This document shows positions 12,769 through 63,629 of a stretch of DNA of 64,000 nucleotides, piece by piece. The position numbers and the translations under genes were made by a program. This DNA comes from a bacterium (GTDB lineage Bacteria > Patescibacteriota > Minisyncoccia > UBA6257 > WO2-44-18). The notes below the pieces were generated by a model. It was given only the letters and a program-made list of their open reading frames with translations. It searched no databases and was not told where the DNA came from. Within the stretch, counting starts at the first letter, position 1, and every line of letters starts with the position of its first letter. The stretch is from assembly GCA_030646995.1 (NCBI GenBank), contig JAUSKF010000006.1:8624-72623 (forward strand). The letters are read 5' to 3'.

Positions 12769-12826
12769 GGGGAAGAAGGGTTGGAAATTAGATTAAAATC
12801 TGTTAGAATTCCAGTAATCTAAGATC

Positions 12827-14738: not shown

Positions 14739-14776
14739 TCTTTAATTTTACCAATTTATAAGATAATATAAGACCA

Positions 14777-24523: not shown

Positions 24524-24570
24524 ATTTGTTGTAAAATAATGCGTGCGCAGTTATATTGAGATTGGTTTAC

Positions 24571-26191: not shown

Positions 26192-26255
26192 TTTTGACTA
26201 TCCCACGTATTTTATTGCATACTACCCCTAGTTGTTTAACAAGAGAGGAGTAGAT

Positions 26256-29610: not shown

Positions 29611-29671
29611 CTTAAATTGCCAAACCGGCTTTAAATTGTTAATTTATGGTTATAACTTCCGTCTATCAGAT

Positions 29672-31865: not shown

Positions 31866-31866
31866 A

Positions 31867-37044: not shown

Positions 37045-38364
37045 ATGCGAACCATCTTTTTATTCGTGGATAAGCCGACTTTCATAGGGGACCTGTTGGA
37101 CACCTCTTATCTGCCTTACCTAGCCTCCAAATATAAGGTGATAGTTTTTACTCGCAAAGTAGACCAGCGGGAGGCGGCGGCGCGCGGTTACCACCAGTCG
37201 CCAAATATTACTTATATGAAATGGCAGATCGAGAACAATCGTCTGCTGGGAGCGATGAAGTTTTTCCGATTTTCCTGCATACGGGAATTCGATTATCTGA
37301 TTACCACAAAATATATACGCAATCGCCGCGGTGAAGATGGAAATAGTTCTCTATTAAGAATTGCCTCTTGGCCCTTAGCCTGGTTGTTCACCTCAAAGTT
37401 TTTTAATTTCATTGAGCGTTTGCTGATGAGGCGTTCGGCCAAGTTTTCCGAATATTGCCGGACTTATCAGCCATCACTGGTCATCACCGCCACCCCCGGT
37501 TTGAATAATTTTGAGGCGGAAGCGGTTTGGCTCGCTAAAAAAGCCGGCCTGCCTACGGTAGCGGTCGATTGCGCTTGGGACAACCTCACTACCCGTGTTA
37601 CCCGCGTTCGTCCCACTGACTATTTTTTTGCCTGGCATGAGCCGATGCGTCAGGAGGCGATAAGGATACACGGCCTTTCTCCGGAACGAGTGCAGGTTAC
37701 CGGACCTTTGCGTTTTGATTATTACTTCACCAAGGAGCCTCAGCAGCCAACCAAGGAAGAGTTTTTGCAATCGTGCGGGCTGGATCCGAAGCTGCCGGCC
37801 ATTTTATATACCACGCAAAAATCCCATCTTTTTGAGGATGATTTTTTAAGGAATCTTATCCAGATGCGTAATGAGCAGCAGATCCCATATGCCAGCATCT
37901 TTATCAGAGTGCACCCACTGGCAAAGCCGGGCCGTTTTCAGGAATTTGAAAAGTTGAAAGATATTTTTGTTGATAGGCCGACAGAAGTTATGTCGTCTGC
38001 CGATCTACGTCATTTAAAATACTCGCTTATGTATGCCGACCTGAATATTAACTATTCCTCCACCATTTCTTTGGAGGCGATGGCTTTTGATAAGCCGGTG
38101 ATAAATTATTTCGAGCCCAGCCTGAAAAGTTTTGAGTTGAATCATTATAAGCCCTTGTTGGATATGAAAGCGTTAAAGTTGGTTTATGACACCAAAAATG
38201 AGCTGGCCAAAGCCATCCGCGATTATTTAGAAGATCCGAGTATTGATCGGGAAGCCCGCAATAAGGTTTTGAATATCTATTTCCCGTTCCGGGACGGCCT
38301 GTGTTATAAGAGGAATGTAGATTTCCTAGAGGAAATTGCAAATTATGGAAATAAGAAAGATTAA
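37045..38364 (+). CDS. TagB/TagF-like polyol-/glycosyl-phosphate transferase, paralog 2
   Basis: LVITATPGLNNFEAEAVWLAKKAGLPTVAVDCAWDNLTTR; C-terminal INYSSTISLEAMAFDKPVINYFEP. Homologous to the ORFs at 21224, 39444, 40809 and 53823. Confidence 0.5.
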   Translation: MRTIFLFVDKPTFIGDLLDTSYLPYLASKYKVIVFTRKVDQREAAARGYHQSPNITYMKWQIENNRLLGAMKFFRFSCIREFDYLITTKYIRNRRGEDGNSSLLRIASWPLAWLFTSKFFNFIERLLMRRSAKFSEYCRTYQPSLVITATPGLNNFEAEAVWLAKKAGLPTVAVDCAWDNLTTRVTRVRPTDYFFAWHEPMRQEAIRIHGLSPERVQVTGPLRFDYYFTKEPQQPTKEEFLQSCGLDPKLPAILYTTQKSHLFEDDFLRNLIQMRNEQQIPYASIFIRVHPLAKPGRFQEFEKLKDIFVDRPTEVMSSADLRHLKYSLMYADLNINYSSTISLEAMAFDKPVINYFEPSLKSFELNHYKPLLDMKALKLVYDTKNELAKAIRDYLEDPSIDREARNKVLNIYFPFRDGLCYKRNVDFLEEIANYGNKKD

Positions 38365-39439
38365 AAAATCAGAGCTTGGCAAAGTTATGGAATTCAACCG
38401 GAAGGAATATCCGGCTGGCCATATTTTGCAGAACGAAACTTACTACAATTGGCAGTTTGATAATGTTTTCAATCCGGAATCGGACAGTTATACCTCCCTC
38501 GGCCTTTTTAATGATGCGGGAGAGTTGGTCGGCACTAATGGATTATTCCCTGCCCCAATCACTTTTTTAAGCAAAAGTCTCCCGTGTATTTGGTTCGCCA
38601 ATTTGATCGTTCGTGAAGATCTACGTAGTTTGGGATATGGCTATCTTCTGATGGAGAAAAGTGTATCGATGGCGGATATGGCGGTAGACCACAATATAAA
38701 TGCTGCGGCGTGGCCTCTTTTTATTAAATCTGGCTGGCAAGGCGGAGATATTGAGCGGTATTTGGGAATTATTAATCCGGAAGGGGCCGAGAGAGTGATT
38801 GGTCAGAGTAATTTAGGGTTGAAGGTCTTGAGTTCTCTGCCGACTAATGATTCCGGTTTGAATTTTGAGTCAGTTTCCAAATTTGATTCGGAAGTGGATG
38901 CTTTGTGGGAAAGCGTCTCGCAGCGTTATCCAATTTCTATAGAGCGAAGTAGTAAATATCTCAATTGGAGATATGCCGAGCATCCGATGACGAAATATCA
39001 CATTTTTTCGGCCAACGCTGGAAACGAAATGAAAGGATTTATTGTGTTGCGCATAGATGAGATCACCGAAGGACCGGAACGAAAGCCGTCGGGAGTTAAG
39101 ATCGGCAGGATAATTGATTGGGTGGCTGACTCGAGCGCAGAAGAATTTATTTTGTTGCAGGCAATCGAGTGGTGCCGGGATCAAAAAGTGGATTTTATTG
39201 ATTATTTCACTACTGAGAATTTTCACGCCGAAAGTCTGAAGAAGTTGGGTTTCGTGAATGATAGGGAAGAGCCTTATTCTTTGATGCCAACCCTCCTGAA
39301 CCCGATCGACCGAGTTAAAAGGACGCGACATAATTTTGCCTTTAAGATTTCTAATCCTGAAAGATTAGATTCCAAGGCGCAAGATTTGGGTAATTGGTAT
39401 GCAGTTAAAGGTTGTGGCGACCAGGATCGGCCATATTAA
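38345..39439 (+). CDS. Acyltransferase of the GNAT fold, FemAB-like tandem architecture (tentative)
   Basis: About 365 aa, in two roughly 170-aa halves with GNAT-like beta-strand/helix patterns (…GYGYLLMEKSV…; …KGFIVLRIDE…). Weak call from sequence alone. Confidence 0.3.
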   Translation: MEIRKIKKSELGKVMEFNRKEYPAGHILQNETYYNWQFDNVFNPESDSYTSLGLFNDAGELVGTNGLFPAPITFLSKSLPCIWFANLIVREDLRSLGYGYLLMEKSVSMADMAVDHNINAAAWPLFIKSGWQGGDIERYLGIINPEGAERVIGQSNLGLKVLSSLPTNDSGLNFESVSKFDSEVDALWESVSQRYPISIERSSKYLNWRYAEHPMTKYHIFSANAGNEMKGFIVLRIDEITEGPERKPSGVKIGRIIDWVADSSAEEFILLQAIEWCRDQKVDFIDYFTTENFHAESLKKLGFVNDREEPYSLMPTLLNPIDRVKRTRHNFAFKISNPERLDSKAQDLGNWYAVKGCGDQDRPY

Positions 39440-39443
39440 AAAG

Positions 39444-40799
39444 ATGAAAACGATTTTTCTAACTAGTTTTAATCCGTTTATCGCGCGCAACATTCTGGCT
39501 ACGGATGTTTTGCGGATTTTGAAGGAATGCAGCGATTTGAAGATCGTAGTTTTTGTGCCAGATTATAAAATTGATTGGTTTAAGAAGAATTTTTCCGGAC
39601 TGAATGTGGTTTTTGAAGGCATTATGTCGCAAAAGATTTCCCGCACCGATGTTATTTTTACCTACCTTGCCAGCTCTCTTTTAGACAGTAAGACCTTGGC
39701 CATTCATAAGAGAGAAGAATTGGCGAAGGATCATAATTATTTTAAATTCGCAGCCTCTTGGGCGCTCAGGAAAATCATTGGCCGCGCAAAAACCTTTCGC
39801 TGGTTAGTTCGATTGCTGGATAGTAAATTTTCTTTCAGATTGGAGTTGAAAAAATATTTTGATAGTTATAAGCCAGATCTTTTGTTTGCGACTGATGTTT
39901 ATCACAATGACGATGTCCATTTTCTATTGGAGGCCCAGCGGCGCTGTGTCTCTACGATCGGAATGATCCGTTCTTGGGATAATATTACTAACAAGGGAAT
40001 TTTCCGGGCCAAGCCCGATCAGTTGATTGTGCACAATGAAACCATTCGGGATGAGGCGGTCCAATTCAATGATTTCAATTCTGAGAAAATTTTTGTTTCC
40101 GGCATCCCTCAATATGATGACTTCGTTAAAGGGCAGAGGATGGAGCGAGCGGAATTTTTCGCCAAGCTCGGGCTGGATCCAGCGAAGAAACTTATTATGT
40201 ATTCTCCGTTTGGAGGTCGTTTTTATAAATATGACGGAGAAATATTAGAAATTTTAAAGGAGTTAGGTGAGCAAGTTCTGGTGCGCATGCCCCCAAACGA
40301 CAAGACTGAATTGATAGGCTTCCAGCCAACAAAACTTTTTTATATTGATCAGTCTGGTCACAAATTCCAAAAAGATACTTTGCGTGATGTGGAATTAAAC
40401 CAGCAGGATATGCGTTGGCTCGGAGATTCCTTGTATCATACCGATGTGCTGGTCGCCTGCGGGGCAAGTATCGCTATTGATGCCGCGCTATTCAACAAGC
40501 CGTCCGTATTCATTTATTTTGATGGCTTAGAAGAAGATTTGCCGTACATGAAGAGTGCTCGCCGATGGCTAGATTTTGACCATGCGAGAAAGCTTCGGGA
40601 TCTCGGCGGATCAGTGTCGGCGATGAGTAAAAAGGAATTACTGGAATTCGTCGGGTCTTTTTTGAGGAATCCGGCCAAGGATCAAGAGAAGAGGAGGGCT
40701 CTAGCCGAAAAGCAGTGCTGGAAGTTGGACGGAAGATCGGGCCATCGGATTGCCGAATTTATTTTAGCCAGAATTGACCTTCAGCGTTTCGGAGGATAG
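39444..40799 (+). CDS. TagB/TagF-like polyol-/glycosyl-phosphate transferase, paralog 3
   Basis: MKTIFLTSFNPFIARNIL N-terminus shared with the paralogs; LVACGASIAIDAALFNKPSVFIYFDGLEEDLPY; terminal LDGRSGHRIAEFI. The start is moved to the ATG at 39444. Confidence 0.5.
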   Translation: MKTIFLTSFNPFIARNILATDVLRILKECSDLKIVVFVPDYKIDWFKKNFSGLNVVFEGIMSQKISRTDVIFTYLASSLLDSKTLAIHKREELAKDHNYFKFAASWALRKIIGRAKTFRWLVRLLDSKFSFRLELKKYFDSYKPDLLFATDVYHNDDVHFLLEAQRRCVSTIGMIRSWDNITNKGIFRAKPDQLIVHNETIRDEAVQFNDFNSEKIFVSGIPQYDDFVKGQRMERAEFFAKLGLDPAKKLIMYSPFGGRFYKYDGEILEILKELGEQVLVRMPPNDKTELIGFQPTKLFYIDQSGHKFQKDTLRDVELNQQDMRWLGDSLYHTDVLVACGASIAIDAALFNKPSVFIYFDGLEEDLPYMKSARRWLDFDHARKLRDLGGSVSAMSKKELLEFVGSFLRNPAKDQEKRRALAEKQCWKLDGRSGHRIAEFILARIDLQRFGG

Positions 40800-40808
40800 A
40801 TTGAATGA

Positions 40809-42161
40809 ATGAAGACAGTCTTTTTAGCGGTGCCGCACGCGGTATTTTCCTCGGACCTTTTACGGACAAAATATATAGAGTATTTGGCTCAGAAATATAA
40901 AGTAGTGGTTTTGAGCGAAATGTTTGATGCCGCCGAGGCTAAGGAGCGAGGATATTTCCAGTCTTCAAATGTTGCATACATAAAGCGTGATATAGAGAAT
41001 CCGCGTTTTTGGGGCCGAATGAAATTTTTGCGCGTTGCCCTAATCAATGAGTTTGATTACTTAATTTCGATCAAGCATTTTTATAAGCGCCCCAACTATG
41101 CCAATAACTGGAAGAGAAGGGTGGTTCGCATGATTGGTTTGCCGTTCAAATATTTTTTGACCGCTGATTTTTTTACAAAATGGGAATTAAAATACTGCCC
41201 CATCTCCCCCCAATTCAATTCTTTACTTTCGGAGTATAAACCGGATCTACTGATTACCGCTACGCCGGGCTTTTCTCCTCTAGAGGCGGAATTAGTTGTT
41301 TTAGCGAAGCGCTCCGGCTTGCCGTCGGTAGCGGTTAACTTTAGCTGGGATAACCTGACTATGAATTCCAAGCATATCCGCAAAACCGATTGGTTGATCG
41401 CTTGGAATGAGGTGATGCGGCAAGAAGCTATTAATATACATAAATATTCTCCTGAAAAAGTTTCTGTGTCGGGTACTTTGAGATTTGACCCATATTTTGA
41501 TGACTCCGACGCTGTGATCGGAGCAGGTAAAGAAGAGCCAACGCGGAAAACTTTTTTGGAGTCCAAGGGATTGAACCCAGAGAATAAAACCGTTTTTCAC
41601 ACTACGGTTACTAAGGCTTACCCGTTCCAGAAAAAATATATTAATGATCTGATCAAATTGAGGGATTCCAAAAAAATCCCCTACGTTAATTTCTTGATCC
41701 GAATCCATCCCTTGGATTTGATAGAGAACTATTCGGAATTCAAGAATATTCCCGATCTTTGCTTGGAAAGGTCCGGTCAAAATGTAGAAATGAGCTATAC
41801 CGACCTGCTGAACCTTAAATATTCTTTGAAATATACCGATCTGAACATCAATTATGCTTCTACGATCACCATTGAGGCCTGTATTTTCGATAAGCCGGTC
41901 ATCAACATTGGCTATTTGGATCGCTTCGCCTTGGCCTATGAGTTCAACCATTATCAACCAATTTATGAAAGTGGAGCGATAAAGTTAGCGAAGACTGACG
42001 AGGACTTACCGATCCTTATTAATCAATACTTAGAGCATCCGGAATCAGGAAGGGAGCAGCGGTTAGCAATCGTGGATAAGTATGTACAATTCACTGATGG
42101 TTTATCATATAAACGTAGCGTAGACGCGCTAAGCGCAATATTTAAATATTTAAATATTTAA
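40809..42161 (+). CDS. TagB/TagF-like polyol-/glycosyl-phosphate transferase, paralog 4
   Basis: MKTVFLAVPH…; LLITATPGFSPLEAELVVLAKRSGLPSVAVNFSWDNLT; INYASTITIEACIFDKPVINIGY. Confidence 0.5.
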   Translation: MKTVFLAVPHAVFSSDLLRTKYIEYLAQKYKVVVLSEMFDAAEAKERGYFQSSNVAYIKRDIENPRFWGRMKFLRVALINEFDYLISIKHFYKRPNYANNWKRRVVRMIGLPFKYFLTADFFTKWELKYCPISPQFNSLLSEYKPDLLITATPGFSPLEAELVVLAKRSGLPSVAVNFSWDNLTMNSKHIRKTDWLIAWNEVMRQEAINIHKYSPEKVSVSGTLRFDPYFDDSDAVIGAGKEEPTRKTFLESKGLNPENKTVFHTTVTKAYPFQKKYINDLIKLRDSKKIPYVNFLIRIHPLDLIENYSEFKNIPDLCLERSGQNVEMSYTDLLNLKYSLKYTDLNINYASTITIEACIFDKPVINIGYLDRFALAYEFNHYQPIYESGAIKLAKTDEDLPILINQYLEHPESGREQRLAIVDKYVQFTDGLSYKRSVDALSAIFKYLNI

Positions 42162-42171: not shown

Positions 42172-43113
42172 ATGTCTGATTTATCGAAAGATAAATATAT
42201 CATTGTTAACTACCACTACGTGGAAGATCCGCGCCCTAAGTCGGCGGGAATTTCTCCCTGTTCGATTGCTGAGTTTGATCGTCAGATCAGTTATTTGTCA
42301 AAGAATTTTAAAATAGTCAACTTGGGAGAGATTTATCAGGCCGCGGTTTCCGGTAAGGAGGGGAAGTTTTGTGCTATTACTTTCGATGATGGCCTGAAAG
42401 ACAATTATGTTAATGCTTTTCCAATCCTCCAGAAATATCAGGCAACGGCTACTTTCTTTATCATTACCTCTGTATTCGAGCATCGTCTACCCGCAGCTCA
42501 CAAGATCCATATTTTACTTTCTAGATTTACCGCTGATCAGATTATCGATCTTTTCCATACTTTCATAGGTGAGTTTTATCCAGACCTAAAAAACCAATAT
42601 ATCATTCCCAAGGACCGTCGTTTAACAGAGCGTAGGATGCATGAAGGAGTAGCAATGGCTAATTTCAAAGAAACAATGATCGCCTTGCCGGAAGATGTGC
42701 GGAGTCAGTTTTTGCGTTATGGATTTAAGATTAATAAATTGAACGAGGAAAAAATCAGTAGCCATTTATTTTTAAATCGAGAAGAAATCAAGGCTTTGCT
42801 GGATGGGGGCATGCAAATCGGTTCGCACTCCCATGGTCATTATTCTATGTCAGGAGACGATGAATCTTTTTTGCGAAAAGACGTAAAACTTTCCAAAGAA
42901 ATTTTATCAGGGATCATCGGCGCTTATCCCAAATGGTTTTCCTATCCGCATGGGCGTTCTAGCGCGGTGGCCGAACGGGTTCTGCGAGAGGAGGGTTTTG
43001 ATTTAGCGGTGACTATTCAGCGGAAAAAAATAGAGAGCACCGATAGTCCGTTGACGATCCCTCGGTATGATACGATAGATATAAAAGAGTATTTGGATGA
43101 GCAAAAGATTTAG
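42172..43113 (+). CDS. Polysaccharide deacetylase (NodB-homology / CE4), paralog B
   Basis: FCAITFDDGLKDNY, GSHSHGHY, SYPHGR; paralogous to the ORF at 25295..26191. Confidence 0.7.
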   Translation: MSDLSKDKYIIVNYHYVEDPRPKSAGISPCSIAEFDRQISYLSKNFKIVNLGEIYQAAVSGKEGKFCAITFDDGLKDNYVNAFPILQKYQATATFFIITSVFEHRLPAAHKIHILLSRFTADQIIDLFHTFIGEFYPDLKNQYIIPKDRRLTERRMHEGVAMANFKETMIALPEDVRSQFLRYGFKINKLNEEKISSHLFLNREEIKALLDGGMQIGSHSHGHYSMSGDDESFLRKDVKLSKEILSGIIGAYPKWFSYPHGRSSAVAERVLREEGFDLAVTIQRKKIESTDSPLTIPRYDTIDIKEYLDEQKI

Positions 43114-52518: not shown

Positions 52519-53823
52519 ATGGATAAAGAAATAGCGGGTTTCATAAAAAAGTATTACCAGAAGAACTTCGCGGGGAAGAAATTCGTTCCCGGCGAAACAC
52601 ATATTCCCGCTTCGGGAAAATCTTTTGATTATCAGGAGATGGTTTTGATGACGGAAGCCGTTTTGGATGGTTGGTGGACCGAGGGACGGTTCGCGGCGGC
52701 TTTTGAGAAGCAGTTGGCCGAATTCGTAGGCGTCAAACATTGCGTTACCACCAATTCCGGATCTTCGGCCAATCTTCTGGCTATTTCCGCGCTGACTTCT
52801 TATCATCTGGGCGAACGACGCTTGAAACCGGGAGATGAAGTGATTACTTTGGCAGCCGGATTCCCAACCACTATTAATCCGATAATTCTTCATCAAGCCA
52901 TCCCGGTTTTCGTGGATATTGATCTCGCGACTGCCAACGTGGATATTGGAAAATTAGAGAAAGCTTTCTCTAAAAAAACTAAAGCTGTGTTCCTTCCTCA
53001 CCATCTCGGCAATCCATTTAACGTGGCAGCCGTTCAGAAGCTTTGCAAAAAACATAAAGCCTGGCTGATAGAGGATTGTTGCGATGCTCTGGGGGCGAAA
53101 TTCGGTGGGAAGCGCGTCGGCAGCTTCGGCGACTTGTCCACCTTCAGTTTTTATGCCGCACACCACATAACCAGCGGAGAAGGAGGAGCGATAATGACCA
53201 ATGATGAGCGGCTGGCCGCCATCGTGCGTTCATTCCGTGATTGGGGTCGGGAATATTGGTTCAAGACTGGCGAGGATATCCGACGCAACAAAGGCCTGGG
53301 AACGGTTAAGCACAGCAAGCTTCCGGCTGATTACGATGATAAATTTATCTTCTCCGAGATCGGCTACAACCTGCGCCTGACCGATATGCAGGCCGCGCTG
53401 GGTTTAGTTCAACTCGGAAAGATCGGAGAGTTCGCGAAACGTCGGGAAAGCAATTTCCAATATTTGTATAAGTTGATGAGCCCGTATAAAAAGTTCTTTA
53501 TTTTGCCGGGCATGGAAAAATCCGCAGCGCCTTCTTGGTTTGGATTTTTAATGACCCTGAAGCCGGATTGCCCATTTACTCGTAAGGAATTCGTGGATTA
53601 TTTGCACAAACACAACGTTGGTACCCGTATGTTCCTCGCCGGCAACGTTATCAAGCAGCCGTACTTCCAGATATATAAGGTAAAGTTTAAAGCTGGGAAT
53701 CTTGCCAGCACGGATTACGTTTTGAGTAATTCCGTTTGGGTCGGAGTCCATCAGGCGATTGATAATGAGAGGAGGGAATATATGGGGAAAGTCTTGAAGT
53801 CGTTTTTGGCGAAGTATAAATAA
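52519..53823 (+). CDS. DegT/DnrJ/EryC1/StrS-family PLP/PMP enzyme, RfbH/DdhC-like (CDP-4-keto-6-deoxyglucose 3-dehydratase-like)
   Basis: KKFVPGETHIPASGKSFDYQEMVLMTEAVLDGWWTEGRF…VKHCVTTNSGSSANLLAISALTS matches the RfbH N-terminus; 434 aa, which is the RfbH size class. Confidence 0.7.
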   Translation: MDKEIAGFIKKYYQKNFAGKKFVPGETHIPASGKSFDYQEMVLMTEAVLDGWWTEGRFAAAFEKQLAEFVGVKHCVTTNSGSSANLLAISALTSYHLGERRLKPGDEVITLAAGFPTTINPIILHQAIPVFVDIDLATANVDIGKLEKAFSKKTKAVFLPHHLGNPFNVAAVQKLCKKHKAWLIEDCCDALGAKFGGKRVGSFGDLSTFSFYAAHHITSGEGGAIMTNDERLAAIVRSFRDWGREYWFKTGEDIRRNKGLGTVKHSKLPADYDDKFIFSEIGYNLRLTDMQAALGLVQLGKIGEFAKRRESNFQYLYKLMSPYKKFFILPGMEKSAAPSWFGFLMTLKPDCPFTRKEFVDYLHKHNVGTRMFLAGNVIKQPYFQIYKVKFKAGNLASTDYVLSNSVWVGVHQAIDNERREYMGKVLKSFLAKYK

Positions 53824-55172
53824 TGACAAAGACCATTTTTATTACGATCTTCCAAGGAGTGGAGGCGCGTAATATTCTCCGAACCGATATATATAAGGAA
53901 TTGGTTGGTCGTCCGGATGTTCGGCTGGTTCTTTTTACCGACAGTGAAGAGAAAAGGAATTATTATCAAAAGGAATTTAACGGTCCGAACGTGATCTATG
54001 AGGTCGTTGGGGAATATCACGCTCGCGGCATTCAGAAATTTTTTGGTGCAGCCAAATTCAATCTAATTAATACTGCCACGGTTGATATTAAAAGAGATAT
54101 CCTGTTTTTCAAAGAACATAGTTATCTGAAATTTTATCGGCGGTGGCTGATCAATCGGCTGTTCGCGCGCAATTTTGTTCGCCGGATAGTTCGCTGGTTG
54201 GACTGGCGGTTGGTTTCTGACCAGTTTTTTAAAAAGTATTTTGATCAATACGATCCGGATCTAGTCCTATCAGCACATCTTTTTGGTGGCACAGAGACCG
54301 CAGTGATTCGGGAGGCGCGCCGTCGTGGAGTTGTCAGCGTCGGATTGATCAATTCCTGGGATAAACTGACCGCCAGAGCAATGATCCGTTTGCTTCCGGA
54401 TTGGATGATTGTTCATAACGATTCAGTGAAAAAAGATGCGATTATTTATGCCGATATGCCAGCTGGTCGCATCTTCGTTTCCGGCATACCCCACTTCGAT
54501 CGGTATAAGACCGGGACCAGGGCTCCGCGCGATCGCTTTTTGCAAGAGATCGGCCTTGACCCCGATAAAAAAACCATTTTGTATCTTCCAGTCGGTCGCG
54601 CCGCCAGTGATGATGATGCCGATATGATGAAATTTTTTGCCGATCTGTTATCGGATAAACGTTTGAAATTTCCGACTCAGCTGATTTTTCGATTCCCGCC
54701 TAATGATGAGATTGTCGCGGAGGGAAAATTTCCAAATGGTGTAGTTATTCAAACACCGGGACGAAGATTCTCTTTGAAACGTGGATCGGATTGGGATATG
54801 AATGAGGACGATTTCCGGATCCTAGCCGACACAATTACTAGCAGTGATGTCGTGGTCGGGTATCCTTCAACGATGATGATAGATGCGGCGATTTTTGATA
54901 AGCCGGTGATTAACATTGCATATGAGCGGCGCCCGCATCCCCGAAATTTCATCCTCTGGGCTTACGAGGTGGATCACTATCGGTCCGTGCTCAATACCGG
55001 CGCCGTCCGGTTGGTTAAGAATGACGATGAATTAATTGATCAGCTGAATGCTTATTTTGCGGATCCTTCATCGGATCGTGAGGGGCGCCGTCGTTTAGTC
55101 GCGGAGCAATGCGGCGCACAGGACGGTAAGGCGGGAAAGCGGGTGGCGGATTTTTTGCTAAACCGTATTTAA
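53823..55172 (+). CDS. TagB/TagF-like polyol-/glycosyl-phosphate transferase, paralog 5
   Basis: MTKTIFITIFQGVEARNIL; VVGYPSTMMIDAAIFDKPVINIAYE; terminal QDGKAGKRVADFLLNRI. Confidence 0.5.
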   Translation: MTKTIFITIFQGVEARNILRTDIYKELVGRPDVRLVLFTDSEEKRNYYQKEFNGPNVIYEVVGEYHARGIQKFFGAAKFNLINTATVDIKRDILFFKEHSYLKFYRRWLINRLFARNFVRRIVRWLDWRLVSDQFFKKYFDQYDPDLVLSAHLFGGTETAVIREARRRGVVSVGLINSWDKLTARAMIRLLPDWMIVHNDSVKKDAIIYADMPAGRIFVSGIPHFDRYKTGTRAPRDRFLQEIGLDPDKKTILYLPVGRAASDDDADMMKFFADLLSDKRLKFPTQLIFRFPPNDEIVAEGKFPNGVVIQTPGRRFSLKRGSDWDMNEDDFRILADTITSSDVVVGYPSTMMIDAAIFDKPVINIAYERRPHPRNFILWAYEVDHYRSVLNTGAVRLVKNDDELIDQLNAYFADPSSDREGRRRLVAEQCGAQDGKAGKRVADFLLNRI

Positions 55173-55190
55173 AACGATACTATTAAACCA

Positions 55191-55667
55191 ATGATCTCAT
55201 TTGAAATATTAAGGAAATACAGTGACCGGGATCGAGCTGATATTAATCGGCTCCTTCCTCAAATTGCCGAAAAACCTCATTTGTTATCAAAGAAAGAATT
55301 CCAGAAAGTTTTGAACGAGAAGGACAATTGCAATCTGGTGGTGGCCAGAGACAGCATTAAGAAAAGGATCGCGGGGATGGCTGCCGTCACTTTTGCTCGA
55401 GTCCCTACTGGTCTTTTGGCGATGGTTGAGGACGTGGTAGTGGATTCCGATTATCGTGGAATGGGTATTGGAGCTAAGCTGACCGAAAAGTTGATCGCCT
55501 TAGCGAAGAAAAGGATGGCGAAGCACATCAGTCTTACGACTAATCCGGCGCGCGAAGCTGCCAACGCCATGTATAAGAAAATGGGGTTTTTTTTGAAGGA
55601 AACTAATTATTACCGCATCAACTTGCACCTACCAAAGCCCAACCTTAAGAGGGGTAAGAATCTATAG
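55191..55667 (+). CDS. GNAT-family N-acetyltransferase
   Basis: Motif A VVVDSDYRGMGIGAKL; 158 aa. Confidence 0.65.
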   Translation: MISFEILRKYSDRDRADINRLLPQIAEKPHLLSKKEFQKVLNEKDNCNLVVARDSIKKRIAGMAAVTFARVPTGLLAMVEDVVVDSDYRGMGIGAKLTEKLIALAKKRMAKHISLTTNPAREAANAMYKKMGFFLKETNYYRINLHLPKPNLKRGKNL

Positions 55668-55717
55668 GGTGTATTGGATTTTTCCTGATTTTGTTGCATA
55701 GTCTTAGGGAAATTATG

Positions 55718-55939
55718 GAGTATATAAAGCTCAAGCGGCGCAAGGACAACCTGATTATCCTGCGTTATCCCGACGGCCACGAAGTGGTCAGCTTGGTAAG
55801 TGAAGTTCAGCATCCCGTGATTCGGGAAGCCTTGGAGTCTCGGAGCTTTCGTGGCGGGCTGGATTTGGTGGCCAGTTCCGCAATCGCCAAGCGAGAAGAT
55901 GTCCTGCAGGCATTGGATCGCGAATCGTTAACCTCTTAA
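55718..55939 (+). CDS. Small hypothetical protein (74 aa)
   Basis: An ORF with no recognisable motif, between the GNAT and acpS genes. Kept only because the operon is tightly packed. Confidence 0.15.
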   Translation, partial: EYIKLKRRKDNLIILRYPDGHEVVSLVSEVQHPVIREALESRSFRGGLDLVASSAIAKREDVLQALDRESLTS

Positions 55940-55943
55940 AAAA

Positions 55944-56291
55944 ATGGAAAAAATTTTGGGTATCGGTGTGGATCTTGCAGAGGTCGGGAGGTTTCGGAAA
56001 ATGCCGTTTAAGCGGCATTCCGATTTCTATAAAAAAATTTTTACCGCGTCGGAGATAAAGTATTGTTTATCGAAAGAAAATCCTTATCCGCACTTCGCCG
56101 CTCGCTTTGCCGCCAAAGAAGCGGTGCTTAAGTGTATTCAAGGTACTATTTATAAAATTTTGGATGTGGAGATTTTCAATGATAAAAATGGAGCTCCGAG
56201 TGTTAAAGTTAAAAAGCAGCGAGGAAGATTTTTGGTTTCGCTTTCGCACACCAAAGATCACGCTATTGCCACAGCAATATGGTTAAATTAA
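55944..56291 (+). CDS. acpS: Holo-[acyl-carrier-protein] synthase (4'-phosphopantetheinyl transferase, AcpS type)
   Basis: ILGIGVDLAEV, RFAAKEAVLKCIQ, SLSHTKDHAIATAI. Confidence 0.7.
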   Translation: MEKILGIGVDLAEVGRFRKMPFKRHSDFYKKIFTASEIKYCLSKENPYPHFAARFAAKEAVLKCIQGTIYKILDVEIFNDKNGAPSVKVKKQRGRFLVSLSHTKDHAIATAIWLN

Positions 56292-57757
56292 TTCAAGAAT
56301 ATTTTTCCGCATCAGCCGAGAAATTTCCGGATAAGATTGCGGTTAACTGGAAAGATCAAAATATTACTTTTGCGGAATTAGAGAGCCGGAGTAATCAGCT
56401 GGCTTTCGCTCTCAAAGGATTAGGGGTGAAGCGAGGAGATCGCATAGCTTTTTGTCTTCAAAAATCTCCCAAAGCAATTCAAGTAATTCTCGGAATTTTG
56501 AAGGTAGATGCGGCCTATGTACCTTTGAATCCCAGAGCTCCGGAAGCAAGGATCGCGCAAATGATTAACGACGCGCAGCCATCGGTTGTGATTTGCGAAC
56601 GGGCTACTAAGGCTTTGGTGAAAAGTGGCAAGGTTTTTGATTTGGACGAAAAGGCAGAAATGCTAGCAGATATGCCGGTCAGTGCGATGCATTGCAAAAA
56701 TACCTCCGTTGATCTTGCCTACATCCTTTACACTTCCGGCTCTACTGGTATTCCTAAGGGCGTAATGATTACGCATGGCAATATTATCAACGCAACCGAT
56801 TGGGCAGTAGAAGAATTTGGTATTAGCGAAAAAGATAGGATGTCTCAGCATCCGCCGTTGCACTTTGACCTCTCCACTTTTGATCTTTATTGCGCTTTTA
56901 AGGCAGGAGCGACTTTGTATTTGGTGCCGGAGGAGTTATCCTTATTCCCGGGCCAGCTTCTGAAATTTATTGAAGAGAGTAAATTAACTATTTGGAATTC
57001 TGTGCCATCAGTTTTAGTTTATCTTTGGAACTCGGGTTTAATTAAAGAGGATCGTTTATCACTGGTACGGAAATTTTTCTTCAATGGCGAAGGATTTCCG
57101 ACCCGATTTTTGGCCGAGTGGATGAAAACTTTTCCGAAAAAAGAATTCGTGAATATGTATGGGCCGACCGAGACGACCGTTCAGTGTACTTTCTATCGGA
57201 TACCAGAGGCGCCGACCGATCTGACCAAGTTGGTGCCTATCGGCAAGGCCTGTCGCAATGTGGAAGTTTTTCTTGTGGATGGAGAATTGTGTGTTGCCGG
57301 CGACGGCGTGGGGCTGGGGTATTGGAATAACCCCGAAAAGACAGCAGTCTCATTTGTGGATATTACGGGCAAGGGGCGAGTCTATAAAACCGGAGATTCG
57401 GGTCGGTTACTTCCGGATGGCAACTATGAATTTATCGGGCGGAAGGATTTTCAGGTAAAAATAATGGGCAATCGGATAGAATTGGGCGATGTGGAGGCGG
57501 CTTTGTTAGCTTTGCCATATATCGAAGACGCTGCAGCGGTTGCGATAGACGCGTCCGCAACAGGAGGGCAGGAGCTTATCGGTTTTGTGAAGTTGAAAGA
57601 AGCGAAGGAGGAATTGATGATCAAAATAGATTTGGCAAAACTTATTCCGCAATATATGGTTCCGGCAAAGATAGTAGTGCGTCCTCTTTTGCCCCGTACC
57701 AGCACCGGGAAGGTGGATCGTAATGCTTTAAAATCAGACTATGGAGATAAAAAATAA
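56279..57757 (+). CDS. Stand-alone adenylation (AMP-binding) enzyme, DltA-like carrier-protein ligase
   Basis: A3 YILYTSGSTGIPKGV, A5 YGPTETTV, A7 YKTGDSGRL, A8 GRKDFQVKIMGNRIELGDVE, A10 PRTSTGKVDRNAL. About 490 aa with no condensation domain. Confidence 0.75.
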   Translation: MVKLIQEYFSASAEKFPDKIAVNWKDQNITFAELESRSNQLAFALKGLGVKRGDRIAFCLQKSPKAIQVILGILKVDAAYVPLNPRAPEARIAQMINDAQPSVVICERATKALVKSGKVFDLDEKAEMLADMPVSAMHCKNTSVDLAYILYTSGSTGIPKGVMITHGNIINATDWAVEEFGISEKDRMSQHPPLHFDLSTFDLYCAFKAGATLYLVPEELSLFPGQLLKFIEESKLTIWNSVPSVLVYLWNSGLIKEDRLSLVRKFFFNGEGFPTRFLAEWMKTFPKKEFVNMYGPTETTVQCTFYRIPEAPTDLTKLVPIGKACRNVEVFLVDGELCVAGDGVGLGYWNNPEKTAVSFVDITGKGRVYKTGDSGRLLPDGNYEFIGRKDFQVKIMGNRIELGDVEAALLALPYIEDAAAVAIDASATGGQELIGFVKLKEAKEELMIKIDLAKLIPQYMVPAKIVVRPLLPRTSTGKVDRNALKSDYGDKK

Positions 57758-57962
57758 AGTTCGGGAATTTCTTAAAACAGAAACTCAAAAAGAAATTACC
57801 AACGATTCGGAGAATCTGATTACTTCCGGAGTGCTCGATTCTTTTTCGATGATTAAATTGATTACTTTTATTGAGAGCGAGCTAAAGATCAAGGTGGATA
57901 TGGAAAAATTATCTGCGGAAAATTTTAATTCCATCGAGAAGATAGATGAATTTCTTCGGTAA
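57741..57962 (+). CDS. Acyl/aminoacyl carrier protein (DltC-like)
   Basis: 73 aa with GVLDSFSMIKLITFIE; the Ser in the LDS motif is the phosphopantetheine attachment site. Overlaps the adenylating enzyme gene by 17 nt. Confidence 0.6.
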   Translation: MEIKNKVREFLKTETQKEITNDSENLITSGVLDSFSMIKLITFIESELKIKVDMEKLSAENFNSIEKIDEFLR

Positions 57963-58004
57963 ATAGGCTTGCCAAAAGCAGTAAATTCTCGTATATTTTT
58001 TATT

Positions 58005-59012
58005 ATGAAAAAGGCGCTTATTACTGGAATCGCCGGCCAAGACGGAAGCCATTTGGCAGAGCTTTTACTCGGAAAGGGATATGAGGTTCACGGAGTCATC
58101 CGACGTTCTTCCAGCTTCAATACCGCCCGCATCGCCCATCTTTTTAGCGATATTCATGAGCCCAACCAACGGCTCCATCTCCACTATGGAGATCTCTCTG
58201 ATGCGGCGATGATTCGTAAAATTATTTATAAGATATCCCCGGATGAGATATATAATTTGGGCGCTCAATCGCATGTGCGGGTGTCGTTCGATATTCCGGA
58301 GTACACCGCTGACATTACCGGTTTGGGCGCGCTTCGGGTTTTGGATGCAATTAAGGATTTTCAGGAACACACAGGCAAGAAAGTAAAATATTATCAGGCA
58401 TCTTCTTCGGAGATGTTTGGGGCTGCTGTTCCGCCGCAGAATGAAGAAACGCCGTTTTGGCCAAGAAGTCCGTATGGCGTGGCCAAGACCTTCGCCTATT
58501 ATACAACTAAGAATTATCGGGAGGCCTACGGAATTTTCGCAGTGAACGGAATTTTATTTAATCATGAAGGTCCGCGCCGTGGAGAGACGTTTGTGACCCG
58601 GAAAATTTCCCGAGGAGTTGCCAGAATTAAAGCCGGATTGGATAAGAAAATTTATCTGGGATATTTAGATTCGCGGAGAGATTGGGGGTATGCTCCGGAA
58701 TACGTAGAGGCCATGTGGATGATGCTTCAGCAGGACAAGCCGGAGGATTATGTTATCGGTACCGGAGAATCCCATTCAATTCGGGACTTTTTGGATGTTG
58801 CGTTCGCTCATGCCGGATTAGGAGATTGGAAGCCCTATGTGGAAATCGATCCTCGCTACCATCGTCCAGCGGAGGTAGAGAATCTGGTCGCCGATACTCG
58901 GAAGGCCAAAGAAAAACTCGGATGGGTCGCCAAGACTAAATTCCATGATTTAGTGAAGATAATGGTGGACGCTGACATTAAAGCGATATGCCCAGACAAA
59001 TTAGAAAAATAG
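58005..59012 (+). CDS. gmd: GDP-mannose 4,6-dehydratase
   Basis: [34 protein letters not shown], catalytic [18 protein letters not shown]. Start at the ATG at 58005. Confidence 0.85.
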
Positions 59013-60190: not shown

Positions 60191-61116
60191 GTAAAAAAAA
60201 TATACTTATTACCGGCGGAGCCGGTTTTTTGGGCCGTAGGGTTTTTGACAAGTTGGTTGAGCGCGGCGTGCCGGCTGAGAAGATTTCCGTTACTCGGTCA
60301 AAAGAGTACGATCTGCGTGATGCCGCGGCCTGCAAAGAGGTCGTTAAGGGGAGGGATATCGTTATTCATCTGGCGGCCATCGTCGGCGGTATCGGCTACA
60401 ATCGTAAGCATCCCGGAGTGGCATTTTACGACAATGCGGCGATGGGGATGAATATTTTGGAGGCCTTTCGGTTGGCGGGTGGAGAAAAATTTGTGGGAGT
60501 TGGCAGTGTCTGCTCCTATCCGAAGTTTGCCCCGGTACCTTTTCAGGAAAAAGATCTATGGAACGGTTATCCGGAGGAAACCAATGCTTCTTATGGTCTC
60601 GCTAAGAAAATGATGTTAGTGCAATCGCAAGCCTATCGGCAAGAATATGGGACTAATGCCGTCCACCTTTTAATGGTGAATCTCTATGGCCCCGGTGACA
60701 ATTTTGACCCGGAGAATTCTCATGTAGTCCCGGCTCTGATTCGAAAGGTGGCGGAGGCAAAAAAGGAGGGTCGCCCATTCATAGAAGCTTGGGGCACCGG
60801 CTCTGCCACCCGTGAGTTTCTATACGTTGATGATGCTGCCGAAGCGATTGTGCTGGCGGCAGAAAAATATGACAAAGGTGAGCCAGTAAATATCGGCTCC
60901 GGTCAGGAGATGAGCATTAAAGACCTGATGGTTACTATCTGTCGGTTGATGGATTATAATGGAGAAATCCGTTGGGATAGTTCTAGGCCCGATGGCCAAC
61001 CTCGCCGCTGTTTGGATGTCGGTTTAGCTGAAAAAGAATTTGGTTTTCGGGCCAAGACTTCCATGGAAGAGGGGTTTCGTAAAACTATTAATTGGTTTTT
61101 GGAAAATCATAAATAA
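60181..61116 (+). CDS. fcl: GDP-L-fucose synthase-like 3,5-epimerase/4-reductase (Fcl/WcaG family)
   Basis: ILITGGAGFLGRRV, SVCSYPKFAPVPFQE, YGLAKKM, NLYGPGDNFDPENSHVVPALIRK. Confidence 0.8.
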   Translation: MDLSKKNILITGGAGFLGRRVFDKLVERGVPAEKISVTRSKEYDLRDAAACKEVVKGRDIVIHLAAIVGGIGYNRKHPGVAFYDNAAMGMNILEAFRLAGGEKFVGVGSVCSYPKFAPVPFQEKDLWNGYPEETNASYGLAKKMMLVQSQAYRQEYGTNAVHLLMVNLYGPGDNFDPENSHVVPALIRKVAEAKKEGRPFIEAWGTGSATREFLYVDDAAEAIVLAAEKYDKGEPVNIGSGQEMSIKDLMVTICRLMDYNGEIRWDSSRPDGQPRRCLDVGLAEKEFGFRAKTSMEEGFRKTINWFLENHK

Positions 61117-63629
61117 TGAAATTAGCGCTCTGCTTTTTAACTTATAACGAAGCGGAATGTTTGAAGAAAATTTTACCTGGCCTCGATACTTCAATGTTCG
61201 ATGAGGTTTTTGCTGTTGATGGCGGTTCTACCGATGGCACTTTGGATATCTACCAGCAGAAGAATATCCGGGTTATTCCGCAGAAGTCTCGGGGTCGTGG
61301 CGAGGCGTTTAAGTTGGCGGAAAAATCTACCGACGCGGATGCTGTCGTGTATTTTAGCCCGGACGGCAATGAAGACTCGGCCGATTTTCCTAAATTTAGA
61401 ATTTTGTTGGAGCAAGGAGCGGACATCGTGATTGCCTCTAGGATGATGAGGGGGGCTATAAATGAAGAAGATATTTCCTGGTGGCGGCCGCGCAAGTGGG
61501 TAAACAATGCCTTTAATTTGGCTGCCAATATTTTATGGAATCGTTCGGGAAAATATATTACCGACTCTATCAACGGTTTCCGGGCTCTGCGTCGGGGAAT
61601 TATTGAGAGGCTTGGTCAGGACGCCATCGGATACACTATTGAATATCAAAATACGATTCGGGCAATGAAAGCCGGTTTGAAGATCGTGGAATTTCCGACT
61701 CATGAAGGTCAGCGCCTTGCCGGTGGAACCCAGGCGCAGTCCTTGAAAGTTGGGCTGCAATTCGTCAAATGTCTTTTTCGGGAAATCGGATTAAGTTTTT
61801 CAAAAAATAGGTTCCTTTTGTTACTAGCTGCGAGCGCGGTTTTTGTTGGGTTGGTTTATGTTCTCCCGCCACTTCTAATCGAGAGAAAAATATTGAGTCA
61901 GGGGGATTCTTTTTTATTAGTCCAGCCGGAAACTTATCGGGATGAGTTTTTCAGCTATGTTCCGCGTGATCGGGAGGTTTTCGACGGGCACTTCCCGGCG
62001 GCGGGCCCCTACGCGAACGATAATCCGCAAACGCTGATGAATCAGTTCCCGCCATTGATATTCTCCGCCTTCATTTATTTGTTTGGCGGTAATGTAGAGT
62101 CCGGATATCTTGCTTTGCAATTTGTTTTTTCCGCCCTGGCTTTTTTGTTATTTTTTTCCCTAGGATCGGCAATGATGAAGTCGCGGTTGTGGGGAGTTCT
62201 GCTGGGTTTTATTGGAGTTTTCACCTATCTTGCCCAACAGATATTTTATTATGCTTATCGCAATCCGCTTGCTATCTACTTCAATAATTTCATTCCGTTC
62301 GTCCGGACGCCGATCTCGAAAATGCCGCTTGCGCGTATTGAAGACCCGCTGATCACCCTCCCTGTTTTTCTAGCCGTGCTTATCGCCTTCTATTCTTTTT
62401 GGAATAAACCCAGACGTTCTACTGCGATTATTACCGCCCTGCTTTCTGGATTGCTGGCCTACACCTATCTTCATCATTGGCTTATGATGATGGTCATCAT
62501 CGGATCAGTTTTTATTCTGGTTCTGCTGACGCGTCGCCACGACAAGGCCTTGATCAAAAATTTCTTGATTTTATTCTCCGTCGCTGGGGTAGTAGTTTTG
62601 CCATATTTGATAAATAATTTTTCTTTCCTGGCCACCCATGGAAAAGACTTTGCTTTGCGTTTGGGATTGGAGCAGGGCCGAGGTCATATTTGGCAGATGA
62701 TCTTTGAAACCCCGATCGTTTTCGACCATATCATCTACTCAATCCTTTTCGCCGTAGTTTATCTGGTTTATTTCCGCTGGCGCCCTGATAGAAAAAAAGG
62801 GCTTTTTATGGCCGGCCTTACCTTATCAATGTTCTTGGTTTGGCAGATACCGTTGATTTTGGGATCTTTTCCTCAGATCTCGCATTTTATAAAATCGGTA
62901 AGTTTAGTAGCTTTGTTGATCATCGTAAATCTCATTTATGACGTGCTGGTTGGATTGGGTAAACGGGGAAGATTGGCGGCCTTGGCGTTGGGTATTTCTT
63001 TAATCGCTGGCCTAGCAGGCAAAAAATTAGTGAATACTTTGATATTCATCAACCCGCCCGCAGGCATCGTGAAAGAGTATAGTTTTCCTAAAGAAATGTT
63101 GGATTCCTGGAGTTGGATAGATGCTAATTTGGGCAAAGAGCCGAAGATCGTTTCTTCATCTTTAGTGACCTCGCTTTATCTTGCCGGTAACACCAAGGCG
63201 CGCCCTTATCTTCCGACCGGATTTATTTCGGCTTTACCAACGACCGAATTGGAGAAAAGATTTATGTTGGTGAATAAATTATTTGGAGTTACTCCGGAGA
63301 TGTTGAGTCGGAGGATAAAAGATTTTGACGATGATTTTAGTGACATCTGCGCCGGAGAAGAGTGCTTTAAGGCCTCGCATTTTAATTTTACAAAAAACCG
63401 ATGGTACTTGGCTGAGCATGGTTGGTATATGACAGAGATGGCTTCTAGTCCGGAAAAGGCGATTGCGGGGTACCGGAAAATGAAGGCCTCTTGGAAAGAC
63501 ACTAACGCTGACTATGTTTATTATGGCCCCTGGGAAAAACAGTTTGGCGCTGCCCGTCTTTCGAGCGACCCCAATCTTAAGCAGGTCTTCAAAAATTCTT
63601 TGGTAGAGATATATCAGATCCAGAGATAG
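61116..63629 (+). CDS. Fusion protein: N-terminal GT2 (DPM1/ArnC-like polyprenyl-phosphate glycosyltransferase) plus C-terminal ~600-aa GT-C-like polytopic membrane domain
   Basis: GT2 domain KLALCFLTYNEAECL…FAVDGGSTDGT…; multi-TM C-terminal domain homologous to the ORF at 43097..44929. 837 aa. Confidence 0.7.
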   Translation: MKLALCFLTYNEAECLKKILPGLDTSMFDEVFAVDGGSTDGTLDIYQQKNIRVIPQKSRGRGEAFKLAEKSTDADAVVYFSPDGNEDSADFPKFRILLEQGADIVIASRMMRGAINEEDISWWRPRKWVNNAFNLAANILWNRSGKYITDSINGFRALRRGIIERLGQDAIGYTIEYQNTIRAMKAGLKIVEFPTHEGQRLAGGTQAQSLKVGLQFVKCLFREIGLSFSKNRFLLLLAASAVFVGLVYVLPPLLIERKILSQGDSFLLVQPETYRDEFFSYVPRDREVFDGHFPAAGPYANDNPQTLMNQFPPLIFSAFIYLFGGNVESGYLALQFVFSALAFLLFFSLGSAMMKSRLWGVLLGFIGVFTYLAQQIFYYAYRNPLAIYFNNFIPFVRTPISKMPLARIEDPLITLPVFLAVLIAFYSFWNKPRRSTAIITALLSGLLAYTYLHHWLMMMVIIGSVFILVLLTRRHDKALIKNFLILFSVAGVVVLPYLINNFSFLATHGKDFALRLGLEQGRGHIWQMIFETPIVFDHIIYSILFAVVYLVYFRWRPDRKKGLFMAGLTLSMFLVWQIPLILGSFPQISHFIKSVSLVALLIIVNLIYDVLVGLGKRGRLAALALGISLIAGLAGKKLVNTLIFINPPAGIVKEYSFPKEMLDSWSWIDANLGKEPKIVSSSLVTSLYLAGNTKARPYLPTGFISALPTTELEKRFMLVNKLFGVTPEMLSRRIKDFDDDFSDICAGEECFKASHFNFTKNRWYLAEHGWYMTEMASSPEKAIAGYRKMKASWKDTNADYVYYGPWEKQFGAARLSSDPNLKQVFKNSLVEIYQIQR

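Follow-up and report, generated by a model that had tools for sequence, protein, structure and literature searches.

The DltABCD system of Firmicutes D-alanylates teichoic acids: an adenylation enzyme standing on its own charges a small, phosphopantetheine-bearing carrier with the amino acid destined for the envelope polymer, and the transfer yields an ester outside the cytoplasm. The AlmEFG system of Vibrio cholerae likewise has a DltA/DltC-like ligase and carrier, which feed a transferase other than DltB/DltD, and glycine is delivered to lipid A (PMC4278540). A comparable loading machinery is encoded in the stretch of DNA analysed here, called the window, which comprises 64 kb (positions 8,624 to 72,623) of the 169-kb contig JAUSKF010000006.1 of a Patescibacteria genome; statements on absent genes refer to the window unless other loci are named. 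The window has a G+C content of about 45% and nearly all of its genes lie on the + strand, making it a single long glycan-biosynthesis region. The machinery belongs to a four-gene cassette consisting of a trio, i.e. the genes for an AcpS-type 4'-phosphopantetheinyl transferase, a stand-alone amino-acid adenylation enzyme (A-domain) and a carrier protein, and of the gene for a tandem-GNAT protein, named tGNAT. On balance, the cassette probably serves the carrier-dependent, cytoplasmic N-aminoacylation of a glycan precursor, with the soluble tandem GNAT unloading the carrier; beyond the identity of the domains, this reading is built on comparative genomics and a predicted fold. The loading half resembles the known Dlt and AlmEFG systems, and the tandem-GNAT unloading half has an architecture and a context different from those of the known carrier-dependent GNATs.

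The cassette departs from DltABCD in having neither DltB nor DltD, in the lack of an alanine racemase gene in the window and in the presence of AcpS in the operon, and the likeness of its carrier to DltC is low-level. Moreover, the transfer step is proposed to be cytoplasmic, catalysed by a soluble GNAT and probably amide-forming, unlike the extracytoplasmic esterification of Dlt. The difference from AlmEFG lies in the transferase, AlmG being a membrane lipid A acyltransferase, whereas tGNAT is a soluble tandem GNAT encoded among sugar-nucleotide and nonulosonic-acid genes; no lipid A acyltransferase family was matched by any open reading frame (ORF) in the Pfam/NCBIfam scans of the window. 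GNAT-fold enzymes whose acyl donor is a phosphopantetheinyl carrier and not CoA are known, namely SbzI, FeeM and GdvG/AprG (PMC11685415). tGNAT shares with them the GNAT fold and a link to a dedicated carrier, visible in 12 of 14 loci and in fusion proteins. They are, however, single-domain enzymes with an altered P-loop and belong to pathways for natural products or N-acyl amino acids, whereas tGNAT is a tandem protein with a canonical loop, encoded in glycan clusters. The tandem GNATs Eis and N-myristoyltransferase (NMT) differ from tGNAT in using acyl-CoA donors and in having no associated carrier or adenylating enzyme.

Non-acetyl acylation of nonulosonic acids has a precedent in Campylobacter jejuni, from which a di-O-methylglyceric-acid derivative of pseudaminic acid, Cj1295 and the FkbH-domain gene cj1302 have been described (PMC7099621, PMC3068675). 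The flagellar-glycan locus of this bacterium resembles the cassette in being a genetic precedent for such acylation with an FkbH-domain gene; unlike the cassette, it has no reported tandem GNAT. Presumably, genes for acyl carrier proteins (ACPs) are present there too. In lincosamide biosynthesis, which employs an A-domain, a carrier (CcbZ/LmbN) and a carrier-dependent enzyme for the amide bond, an aminoacyl-S-carrier is condensed onto an amino sugar (work cited in PMC11685415). CcbZ is found among the weak solved relatives of the window carrier, and the lincosamide amide differs from the one proposed here in arising in a secondary-metabolite pathway. The condensing enzyme of that pathway is not known to be a GNAT. 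Which genes give nonulosonic acids their N-glyceroyl and N-acetimidoyl groups "remains a major challenge", in the words of the authors of a study on Tannerella forsythia (PMC5378307). No description of the cassette in bacteria of the candidate phyla radiation (CPR) or in nonulosonic-acid settings was found in the literature searched.

The trio occupies positions 55944-57962 and consists of three + strand ORFs, each recognised by family models above their cut-offs; the first-pass annotation of the window had likewise described an adenylation-carrier pair with its own AcpS. The AcpS protein (55944-56291, 115 amino acids, aa) is a single-domain protein of the size typical of its family (about 120 aa) and matches PF01648 (E 2e-17, 63.5 bits against a cut-off of 25) and TIGR00516 acpS (64.2 bits against 59.8). 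The A-domain (56279-57757, 492 aa) has the AMP-binding and AMP-binding_C domains and scores 370 bits with TIGR01733, "amino acid adenylation domain" (cut-off 317). A pattern search detected all the core motifs A1-A10 in it, more than the A3 to A10 initially noticed. The equivalents of Asp235 (the Asp of F-D-L-S) and Lys517 (the Lys of T-G-K-V-D-R) are both present, and because these residues hold the alpha-amino and carboxylate groups, the substrate would be an alpha-amino acid. The carrier (57741-57962, 73 aa) matches PF00550 (PP-binding, 24.4 bits against 20.8), and its phosphopantetheine site, noted earlier as an LDS motif, is Ser34 in GVLDS. Among solved structures it comes closest to peptidyl and D-alanyl carrier proteins, and its top NCBIfam match is an ornithine-lipid ACP (44.5 bits against a cut-off of 130). 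Carrier orthologs come after the A-domain gene in all related loci. The AcpS and A-domain genes overlap by 13 nt and the A-domain and carrier genes by 17 nt, which suggests translational coupling. In a promoter and terminator scan of 55100-58100 the number of sites was no higher than in shuffled sequence. A 276-nt gap (55668-55943) separates AcpS from the gene of a small GNAT upstream; the same two genes overlap in locus L005. An 82-aa ORF in this gap has no homolog and no family and was treated as non-coding. Candidate-phyla bacteria of this kind generally have no fatty-acid synthesis and hence no housekeeping AcpS, so the AcpS of the cluster may be needed for that reason.

The gene expected to complete the cassette was recognised in the neighbourhoods of A-domain relatives. 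Down to about 45% identity, these relatives come from Parcubacteria/Patescibacteria wherever the source is named, and 14 distinct Patescibacteria loci were counted: the window, L001, L003, L005, L006, L009, L010, L012, L014-L018 and L022, with L003/L013 and L006/L020 each taken as one locus; two further loci, L023 and L024, are from outside the CPR. An AcpS ortholog lies directly 5' of the A-domain gene in all 14. Directly 3' of the carrier gene there is a fourth gene, of 328-367 aa, whose product has weak Pfam matches or none. It is an ortholog (40-48% identity; E 1e-119 to 1e-170 in hmmsearch with the family profile) of the window ORF at 38345-39439 on the + strand, open from a TTG at 38336, which codes for tGNAT, a protein of 364 aa and the proposed aminoacyl transferase. 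In 12 of the 14 loci the tGNAT gene comes immediately after that of the carrier, in several with an overlap of 4-19 nt. In L003/L013 it lies two genes 3' of the carrier, with FolD between them, and a tGNAT paralog is found just before AcpS. When species-representative genomes were scanned with the tGNAT-family profile, 11 loci were obtained, all in Patescibacteria; 10 of them are complete, and all have the order AcpS-A-carrier-tGNAT uninterrupted save L013. The close tGNAT family comprises 48 clusters, the named ones all from Patescibacteria metagenome-assembled genomes (MAGs), and 22 of the 48 are putatively on the same contig as an A-domain homolog. The single apparent exception examined, P0148, carries the trio after all. 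No other acyltransferase is conserved around the trio across the 14 loci, and neither is any other candidate unloading enzyme in these loci, L023 or L024. It is worth adding that L017 has a second A-domain homolog (13231-14952) about 2 kb downstream of its AcpS-A-carrier-tGNAT cassette.

The predicted fold of tGNAT has two GNAT domains in one chain and can be superposed on Eis and NMT, at 11-14% sequence identity; in enzymes of this type the N-terminal GNAT domain binds the pantetheine arm of acyl-CoA. A FemAB-like nature, included in the earlier label "GNAT/FemAB-like", was rejected on this fold, as there is no FemAB family signature or FemX-like fold. tGNAT has no hydrophobic segment and should therefore be cytoplasmic. 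A sequence search of PDB with the tGNAT profile returned only generic GNAT matches (E at least 0.007). The search of the tGNAT profile against 1.84 billion representative proteins yielded 259 clusters at E no greater than 1e-30, and among them are fusions of tGNAT with a carrier (P0168, P0225, P0228), with FkbH, HAD and a carrier (P0224, P0213) and with an AMP-binding enzyme (P0239). A search with P0228 added 15 clusters of 424-451 aa covering 93-100% of the fusion; these relatives come from Pirellulaceae, Acidobacteria and Chloroflexia MAGs, and some are labelled "acyl carrier protein/GNAT superfamily N-acetyltransferase" by JGI. The fused carrier domains all have a W-D-S-(L/M)-N-H-L serine motif. 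Judged by their domain composition, the fusions physically tie tGNAT to carriers and loaders.

The loading pair is not a true DltA/DltC, as judged from its model scores and pocket residues, and the first reading of the trio as DltA/DltC-like D-alanylation machinery is not supported. The DltA equivalogs score the A-domain below their cut-offs (TIGR01734, 322 bits against 559.85; NF003417, 327 against 476), and so do the DltC equivalogs for the carrier (NF003464, 34 bits against 68; TIGR01688, 21 against 52). In PDB the nonribosomal peptide synthetase (NRPS) A-domains outscore DltA: PltF gives 298 bits, TycA 275 and each LgrA domain 230-239, compared with 200-224 for the DltA structures. Grouping with acyl-CoA synthetases was also considered; their models give 130-240 bits, far under their cut-offs. 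The pocket, whose reading had been recommended at the outset, is D-L-F-N-F-N-M-V-Q plus Lys (DLFNFNMVQK), is kept throughout the clade and is not DltA-like. It was read against a GrsA ruler, which recovered DAWTIAAIC, the code published for GrsA, and is consistent with how HMMER aligns the A-domain to LgrA. In DltA the methyl group of D-alanine lies amid Leu197, Met200 and Cys268, the last of which governs enantioselectivity (PMC8972799). The equivalents in the A-domain are Leu, Phe and Asn clade-wide, and Met stands where DltA has Thr297. Cys at the position of Cys268 is found in P0084 and P0105, which have an MBOAT and/or alanine racemase gene, and also in P0090. We know of no specificity code sharing more than five of ten positions with DLFNFNMVQK. 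Assignment of a particular amino acid from the pocket was dropped.

As the first-pass annotation had pointed out, no DltB or DltD partner accompanies the pair. The Pfam and/or NCBIfam scan included all window ORFs of at least 300 aa outside annotated opposite-strand genes and most of the smaller ones, and no MBOAT (PF03062) or DltD was found among the ORFs scanned; phmmer with MBOAT, DltD-like (from L007 and L011) and alanine-racemase proteins found nothing among the window ORFs of at least 55 aa. Searches of the 14 Patescibacteria loci likewise gave no MBOAT or DltD-like homolog at a distance of up to 10 kb from the cassette, and there is no alanine racemase gene near the cassette in the window or in these loci. 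The claim that the pair works without DltB/DltD, by a non-canonical transfer step on a surface glycan, is supported. More distant relatives of the A-domain do have such partners. L007, a Nanoarchaeota MAG (42% identity), encodes an A-domain, a GNAT, a carrier, alanine racemase, MBOAT, a DltD-like protein and AcpS, and L011, an archaeal-looking contig (49% identity), an A-domain, a carrier, an AcpS fusion, a DltD-like protein and MBOAT. Their pockets are DLFNTCQCA and DLFLFTMVE, respectively, and both loci are without tGNAT. P0075, with 47% identity, has the pocket DLFNCNMVQ and a tGNAT, and P0069, with 49% identity, has an MBOAT; pocket and partner therefore switch together, independently of overall identity. 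The DPANN locus (L007, 10001-17528) is a complete Dlt-like operon followed by a gene for an LPG_synthase_TM protein, an unusual finding in an archaeon. In L011, AcpS (11883-12983, - strand) is fused to a 2-oxoacid dehydrogenase acyltransferase domain; proteasome and aCPSF-like genes lie on the same contig. In a Maribacter MAG (L008, 8712-13744) the same loader goes with yet another, third kind of unloading partner: a NeuB/NeuC/cytidylyltransferase cluster that includes an alanine racemase gene encodes a DUF4910 aminopeptidase-like protein (cf. Cj1295), the A-domain, a formyltransferase, a carrier of 93 aa and an Antibiotic_NAT acetyltransferase (cf. Cj1296/7).

In the proposed mechanism, AcpS would attach phosphopantetheine to Ser34 of the carrier, as its family membership and the operon structure imply. 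The A-domain would adenylate an alpha-amino acid and thioesterify the carrier, judging from its full motif set and the Asp235 and Lys517 equivalents, and tGNAT, acting in the cytoplasm with the aminoacyl-S-carrier as donor, would join the amino acid to the amine of a sugar through an amide bond. tGNAT is favoured as the unloading enzyme because of synteny, phyletic coupling, the replacement of MBOAT/DltD and the domain fusions. Less firmly, the co-travelling genes point to a nonulosonic-acid or hexosamine precursor as the probable acceptor, its amine perhaps freed by a CE4 deacetylase. TagB/TagF-like transferases might then place the modified sugar into the glycan.

Several observations weigh against this mechanism. 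The tGNAT family keeps R94-x-x-G97-x-G99, the CoA pyrophosphate loop in its canonical form, without variation, and an acyl-CoA donor could therefore serve instead of the carrier; the P-loop is altered in the known carrier-dependent SbzI and FeeM (PMC11685415). The carrier-fused members retain R-x-x-G-x-G too, so at least the loop does not conflict with having a carrier as partner. With PP-binding, the carrier domains in the fusions give marginal scores, 18.5-23 bits around the cut-off of 20.8. A carrier fused to tGNAT or encoded beside it might also offer the acceptor, e.g. an aminoacyl amine for acetylation, and not the donor. In the window, and only there, tGNAT is displaced, lying 17 kb upstream of the trio within a TagF-tGNAT-TagF-TagF-deacetylase block, so the coupling here is drawn from the relatives. 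As for the acceptor, it is proposed from gene neighbourhood, and the window has no NeuB gene. Finally, the view covers 64 kb of the contig.

The main rival is that tGNAT is an ordinary acetyl-CoA N-acetyltransferase, acting on a carrier-bound alpha-amine or on a sugar amine, and that the carrier is unloaded by an unrecognised enzyme. The invariant CoA loop, the use of acyl-CoA by the nearest structural relatives Eis and NMT, and the occurrence of small capping enzymes within related A-carrier operons (the GNAT in L007, formyltransferases in L008 and L003) all agree with it. We nevertheless regard it as unlikely, since the 14 loci, L023 and L024 share no other unloading candidate, the carrier of the FkbH-carrier-tGNAT proteins would hold a glyceryl group with no amine to acetylate, and tGNAT takes the place that the unloading enzymes, MBOAT and DltD, have in sister systems.

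Even less probable is unloading by the small single-domain GNAT (55191-55667, + strand, 158 aa; PF00583, E 2e-16) encoded upstream of AcpS. It is a bona fide GNAT, single-domain carrier-dependent GNATs such as SbzI are known, and its gene adjoins AcpS in the window, L005 and L014. Its homologs, however, are present in only four of the 14 loci (those three and L017) and missing from the 10 others, which retain the trio; the L005, L014 and L017 genomic stretches also have copies beside TagF-like genes away from the trio, and the similarity is generic and RimI-like only. On this distribution it was rejected as the main transferase. The small GNAT is an accessory gene, possibly, and speculatively, for capping the alpha-amine of the transferred amino acid. 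The membrane proteins at 43097 and 61116 were also rejected as transferases, the former having no family, the latter a GT2 domain only, and neither any similarity to MBOAT. Among the candidates for the transfer step put forward by the first-pass annotation, the ORF at 38345 has thus gained comparative evidence, whereas the small GNAT and the GT-C membrane proteins, which have no link to the trio, have been set aside.

A canonical Dlt pathway, with DltB and DltD encoded elsewhere in the genome and with extracytoplasmic esterification of a teichoic-acid-like polymer, would accord with the limited view of the contig, with the pairing of distant A-domain relatives with MBOAT and DltD-like proteins, and with the five TagF-like genes. 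It is very improbable in light of the lack of MBOAT and DltD-like homologs in the window and up to 10 kb from the cassette in the 14 loci, the DltA/DltC models below cut-offs, the Asn in place of Cys268, the absence of a nearby alanine racemase and the different pockets of the MBOAT-linked relatives. That the product of the trio is a small non-ribosomal compound or the head group of a lipid (e.g. an aminoacyl lipid), unrelated to the glycan genes, would be in keeping with the best scores of the A-domain against NRPS A-domains and with the ornithine-lipid ACP match of the carrier; it is very improbable, as no condensation, thioesterase or lipid acyltransferase gene is found in the window or related loci and the cassette always lies among sugar-nucleotide, glycosyltransferase, flippase and Wzy genes.

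Returning to the proposed N-aminoacylation by the cassette, the genes that accompany it bear on the acceptor. One is a TagB/TagF-like transferase gene (53823-55172, + strand, 449 aa; PF04464, E 1e-12), a conserved cassette neighbour whose ortholog (44-45% identity) lies directly 5' of AcpS, or of the small GNAT-AcpS pair, in 12 of the 14 loci. Its product scores 59.9 bits with the NF046086 BFO_1060 family, below the cut-off of 200, and 24 bits with TarF (cut-off 550). The BFO_1060 family includes TagB-like pseudaminic- and legionaminic-acid transferases of T. forsythia (PMC5420450), and the 53823 protein may install the modified sugar. Three more TagF-like genes surround or overlap tGNAT (37045-38364, 39399-40799 and 40809-42161, all + strand; phmmer matches to 53823 with E 3e-29 to 6e-77), the tGNAT stop overlapping the next TagF-like start by 41 nt. 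All five TagF-like ORFs counted at first sight (21224, 37045, 39399, 40809 and 53823) were recovered, four by PF04464 and the fifth, 40809, just under the cut-off of that family (21.1 against 22.1 bits), by phmmer to 53823 (E 3e-38). The polyol-phosphate polymer considered plausible from them is not supported, in view of the match of 53823 to the BFO_1060 family, although below its cut-off, and of the absence of a TagD-type cytidylyltransferase (PF01467) in the window.

The TagF-tGNAT-TagF-TagF block ends with a CE4 polysaccharide deacetylase gene (42172-43113, + strand; PF01522, E 1e-22), a candidate for exposing the acceptor amine. A second CE4 gene (25295-26191, + strand; PF01522, E 8.5e-27) lies directly 3' of genes for a NeuC-type hydrolysing UDP-GlcNAc 2-epimerase (23341-24498, + strand; TIGR03568 NeuC_NnaA, 308 bits, cut-off 236) and a PseF-like cytidylyltransferase (24556-25284, + strand; PseF 162 bits, below the cut-off of 206). 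Of the 14 Patescibacteria loci, four (L006/L020, L022, L014 and the window) have CE4 genes beside the cassette, as do the two loci from outside the CPR. NeuC-like and cytidylyltransferase genes occur with the cassette in about 11 of the 14, as well as in L024; in most Patescibacteria loci tGNAT is followed on its 3' side by genes for a NeuC-type epimerase, a CMP-sugar synthetase-like protein and a 2-hydroxyacid dehydrogenase and, further on, NeuB. L024 comprises NeuB, the epimerase, the cytidylyltransferase, the 2-hydroxyacid dehydrogenase, FkbH, carrier-tGNAT, MaoC and CE4, then glycosyltransferases and Wzy; L023 comprises a CE4 deacetylase, carrier-tGNAT, AcpS and FkbH. On these gene contents, the acceptor is proposed, with moderate-to-low confidence, to be the sugar amine of a nonulosonic-acid or hexosamine precursor. 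Perosamine N-acylation, as by RfbK/L of V. cholerae O1, is not favoured, as there is no GMD-type gene 3' of the cassette in the loci read. Genes for a GMD (511 bits, above cut-off) and a DegT aminotransferase lie 3' of the window carrier gene.

The four-gene cassette is modular, with a loader (A-domain or FkbH), a carrier and a tandem GNAT, and its forms extend from Patescibacteria to Planctomycetes and Acidobacteria. Loading modules of the same kind would feed two unloading routes, MBOAT with DltD outside the membrane and tGNAT inside the cell. As a broader and tentative proposal, in which we place a little less than even confidence, tGNAT proteins form a widespread class of carrier-dependent N-acyltransferases that put non-acetyl acyl groups onto nonulosonic acids or amino sugars before glycan assembly, the aminoacyl groups being supplied by the A-domain and the glyceryl-derived ones by FkbH. 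If so, the class would fill the enzymatic gap behind much of the N-acyl diversity seen among the sialic-acid-like sugars of bacteria, and Patescibacteria would be coated with aminoacylated nonulosonic acids that a cytoplasmic counterpart of Dlt produces. CPR bacteria live attached to host cells, and a charged surface decoration is plausibly relevant to their attachment or to phage or host recognition. The routes by which amino acids and other non-acetyl acyl groups are attached to bacterial surface sugars are largely uncharted, and the cassette offers a concrete entry point.

The rest of the window has further genes of glycan metabolism. The segment 44983-53823 contains genes for a CDP-3,6-dideoxy or branched-chain hexose, including those for a glucose-1-phosphate cytidylyltransferase-like protein (292 bits, cut-off 300), an acetolactate-synthase/YerE-like thiamine pyrophosphate enzyme (49573), a class I aminotransferase (51351) and RfbH (52519; 569 bits against 423); in L005 a split transketolase takes the place of the acetolactate-synthase-like enzyme. 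Two radical SAM enzymes are encoded inside the glycan cluster, one with B12-binding (26232-28343, 703 aa) and one with SPASM (34734-36023, 429 aa). A UDP-sulfoquinovose-synthase-like protein (28422-29576; NF041015, 475 bits against 575) hints at a sulfonated or otherwise unusual 6-deoxy sugar. Genes for a PGDH-like 2-hydroxyacid dehydrogenase, SHMT and FolD are consecutive at 29636-32646, and a second FolD gene is found at 150-935; in L003 (11784-14536), besides the FolD between carrier and tGNAT, a formyltransferase gene lies 3' of tGNAT. Such one-carbon genes in glycan clusters may serve to N-formylate either the attached amino acid or a sugar. An 837-aa protein (61116-63629) joins an N-terminal GT2 domain (AglJ/dolichyl-phosphate hexose transferase-like) to a polytopic membrane domain of about 600 aa with no family, and the sole recognisable domain of a 1250-aa protein (8960-12712) is an N-terminal PG_binding_1 peptidoglycan-binding domain. 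PADLOC gave zero matches on the sequence. A conserved block absent from the window lies 5' of the cassette in L001, L003, L009 and L010 (about 0.5-7.3 kb) and comprises transaldolase/FSA-like, SIS (GmhA-like), HAD, GHMP kinase and nucleotidyltransferase genes, which suggests that a nucleotide-activated heptose pathway co-travels with the cassette.

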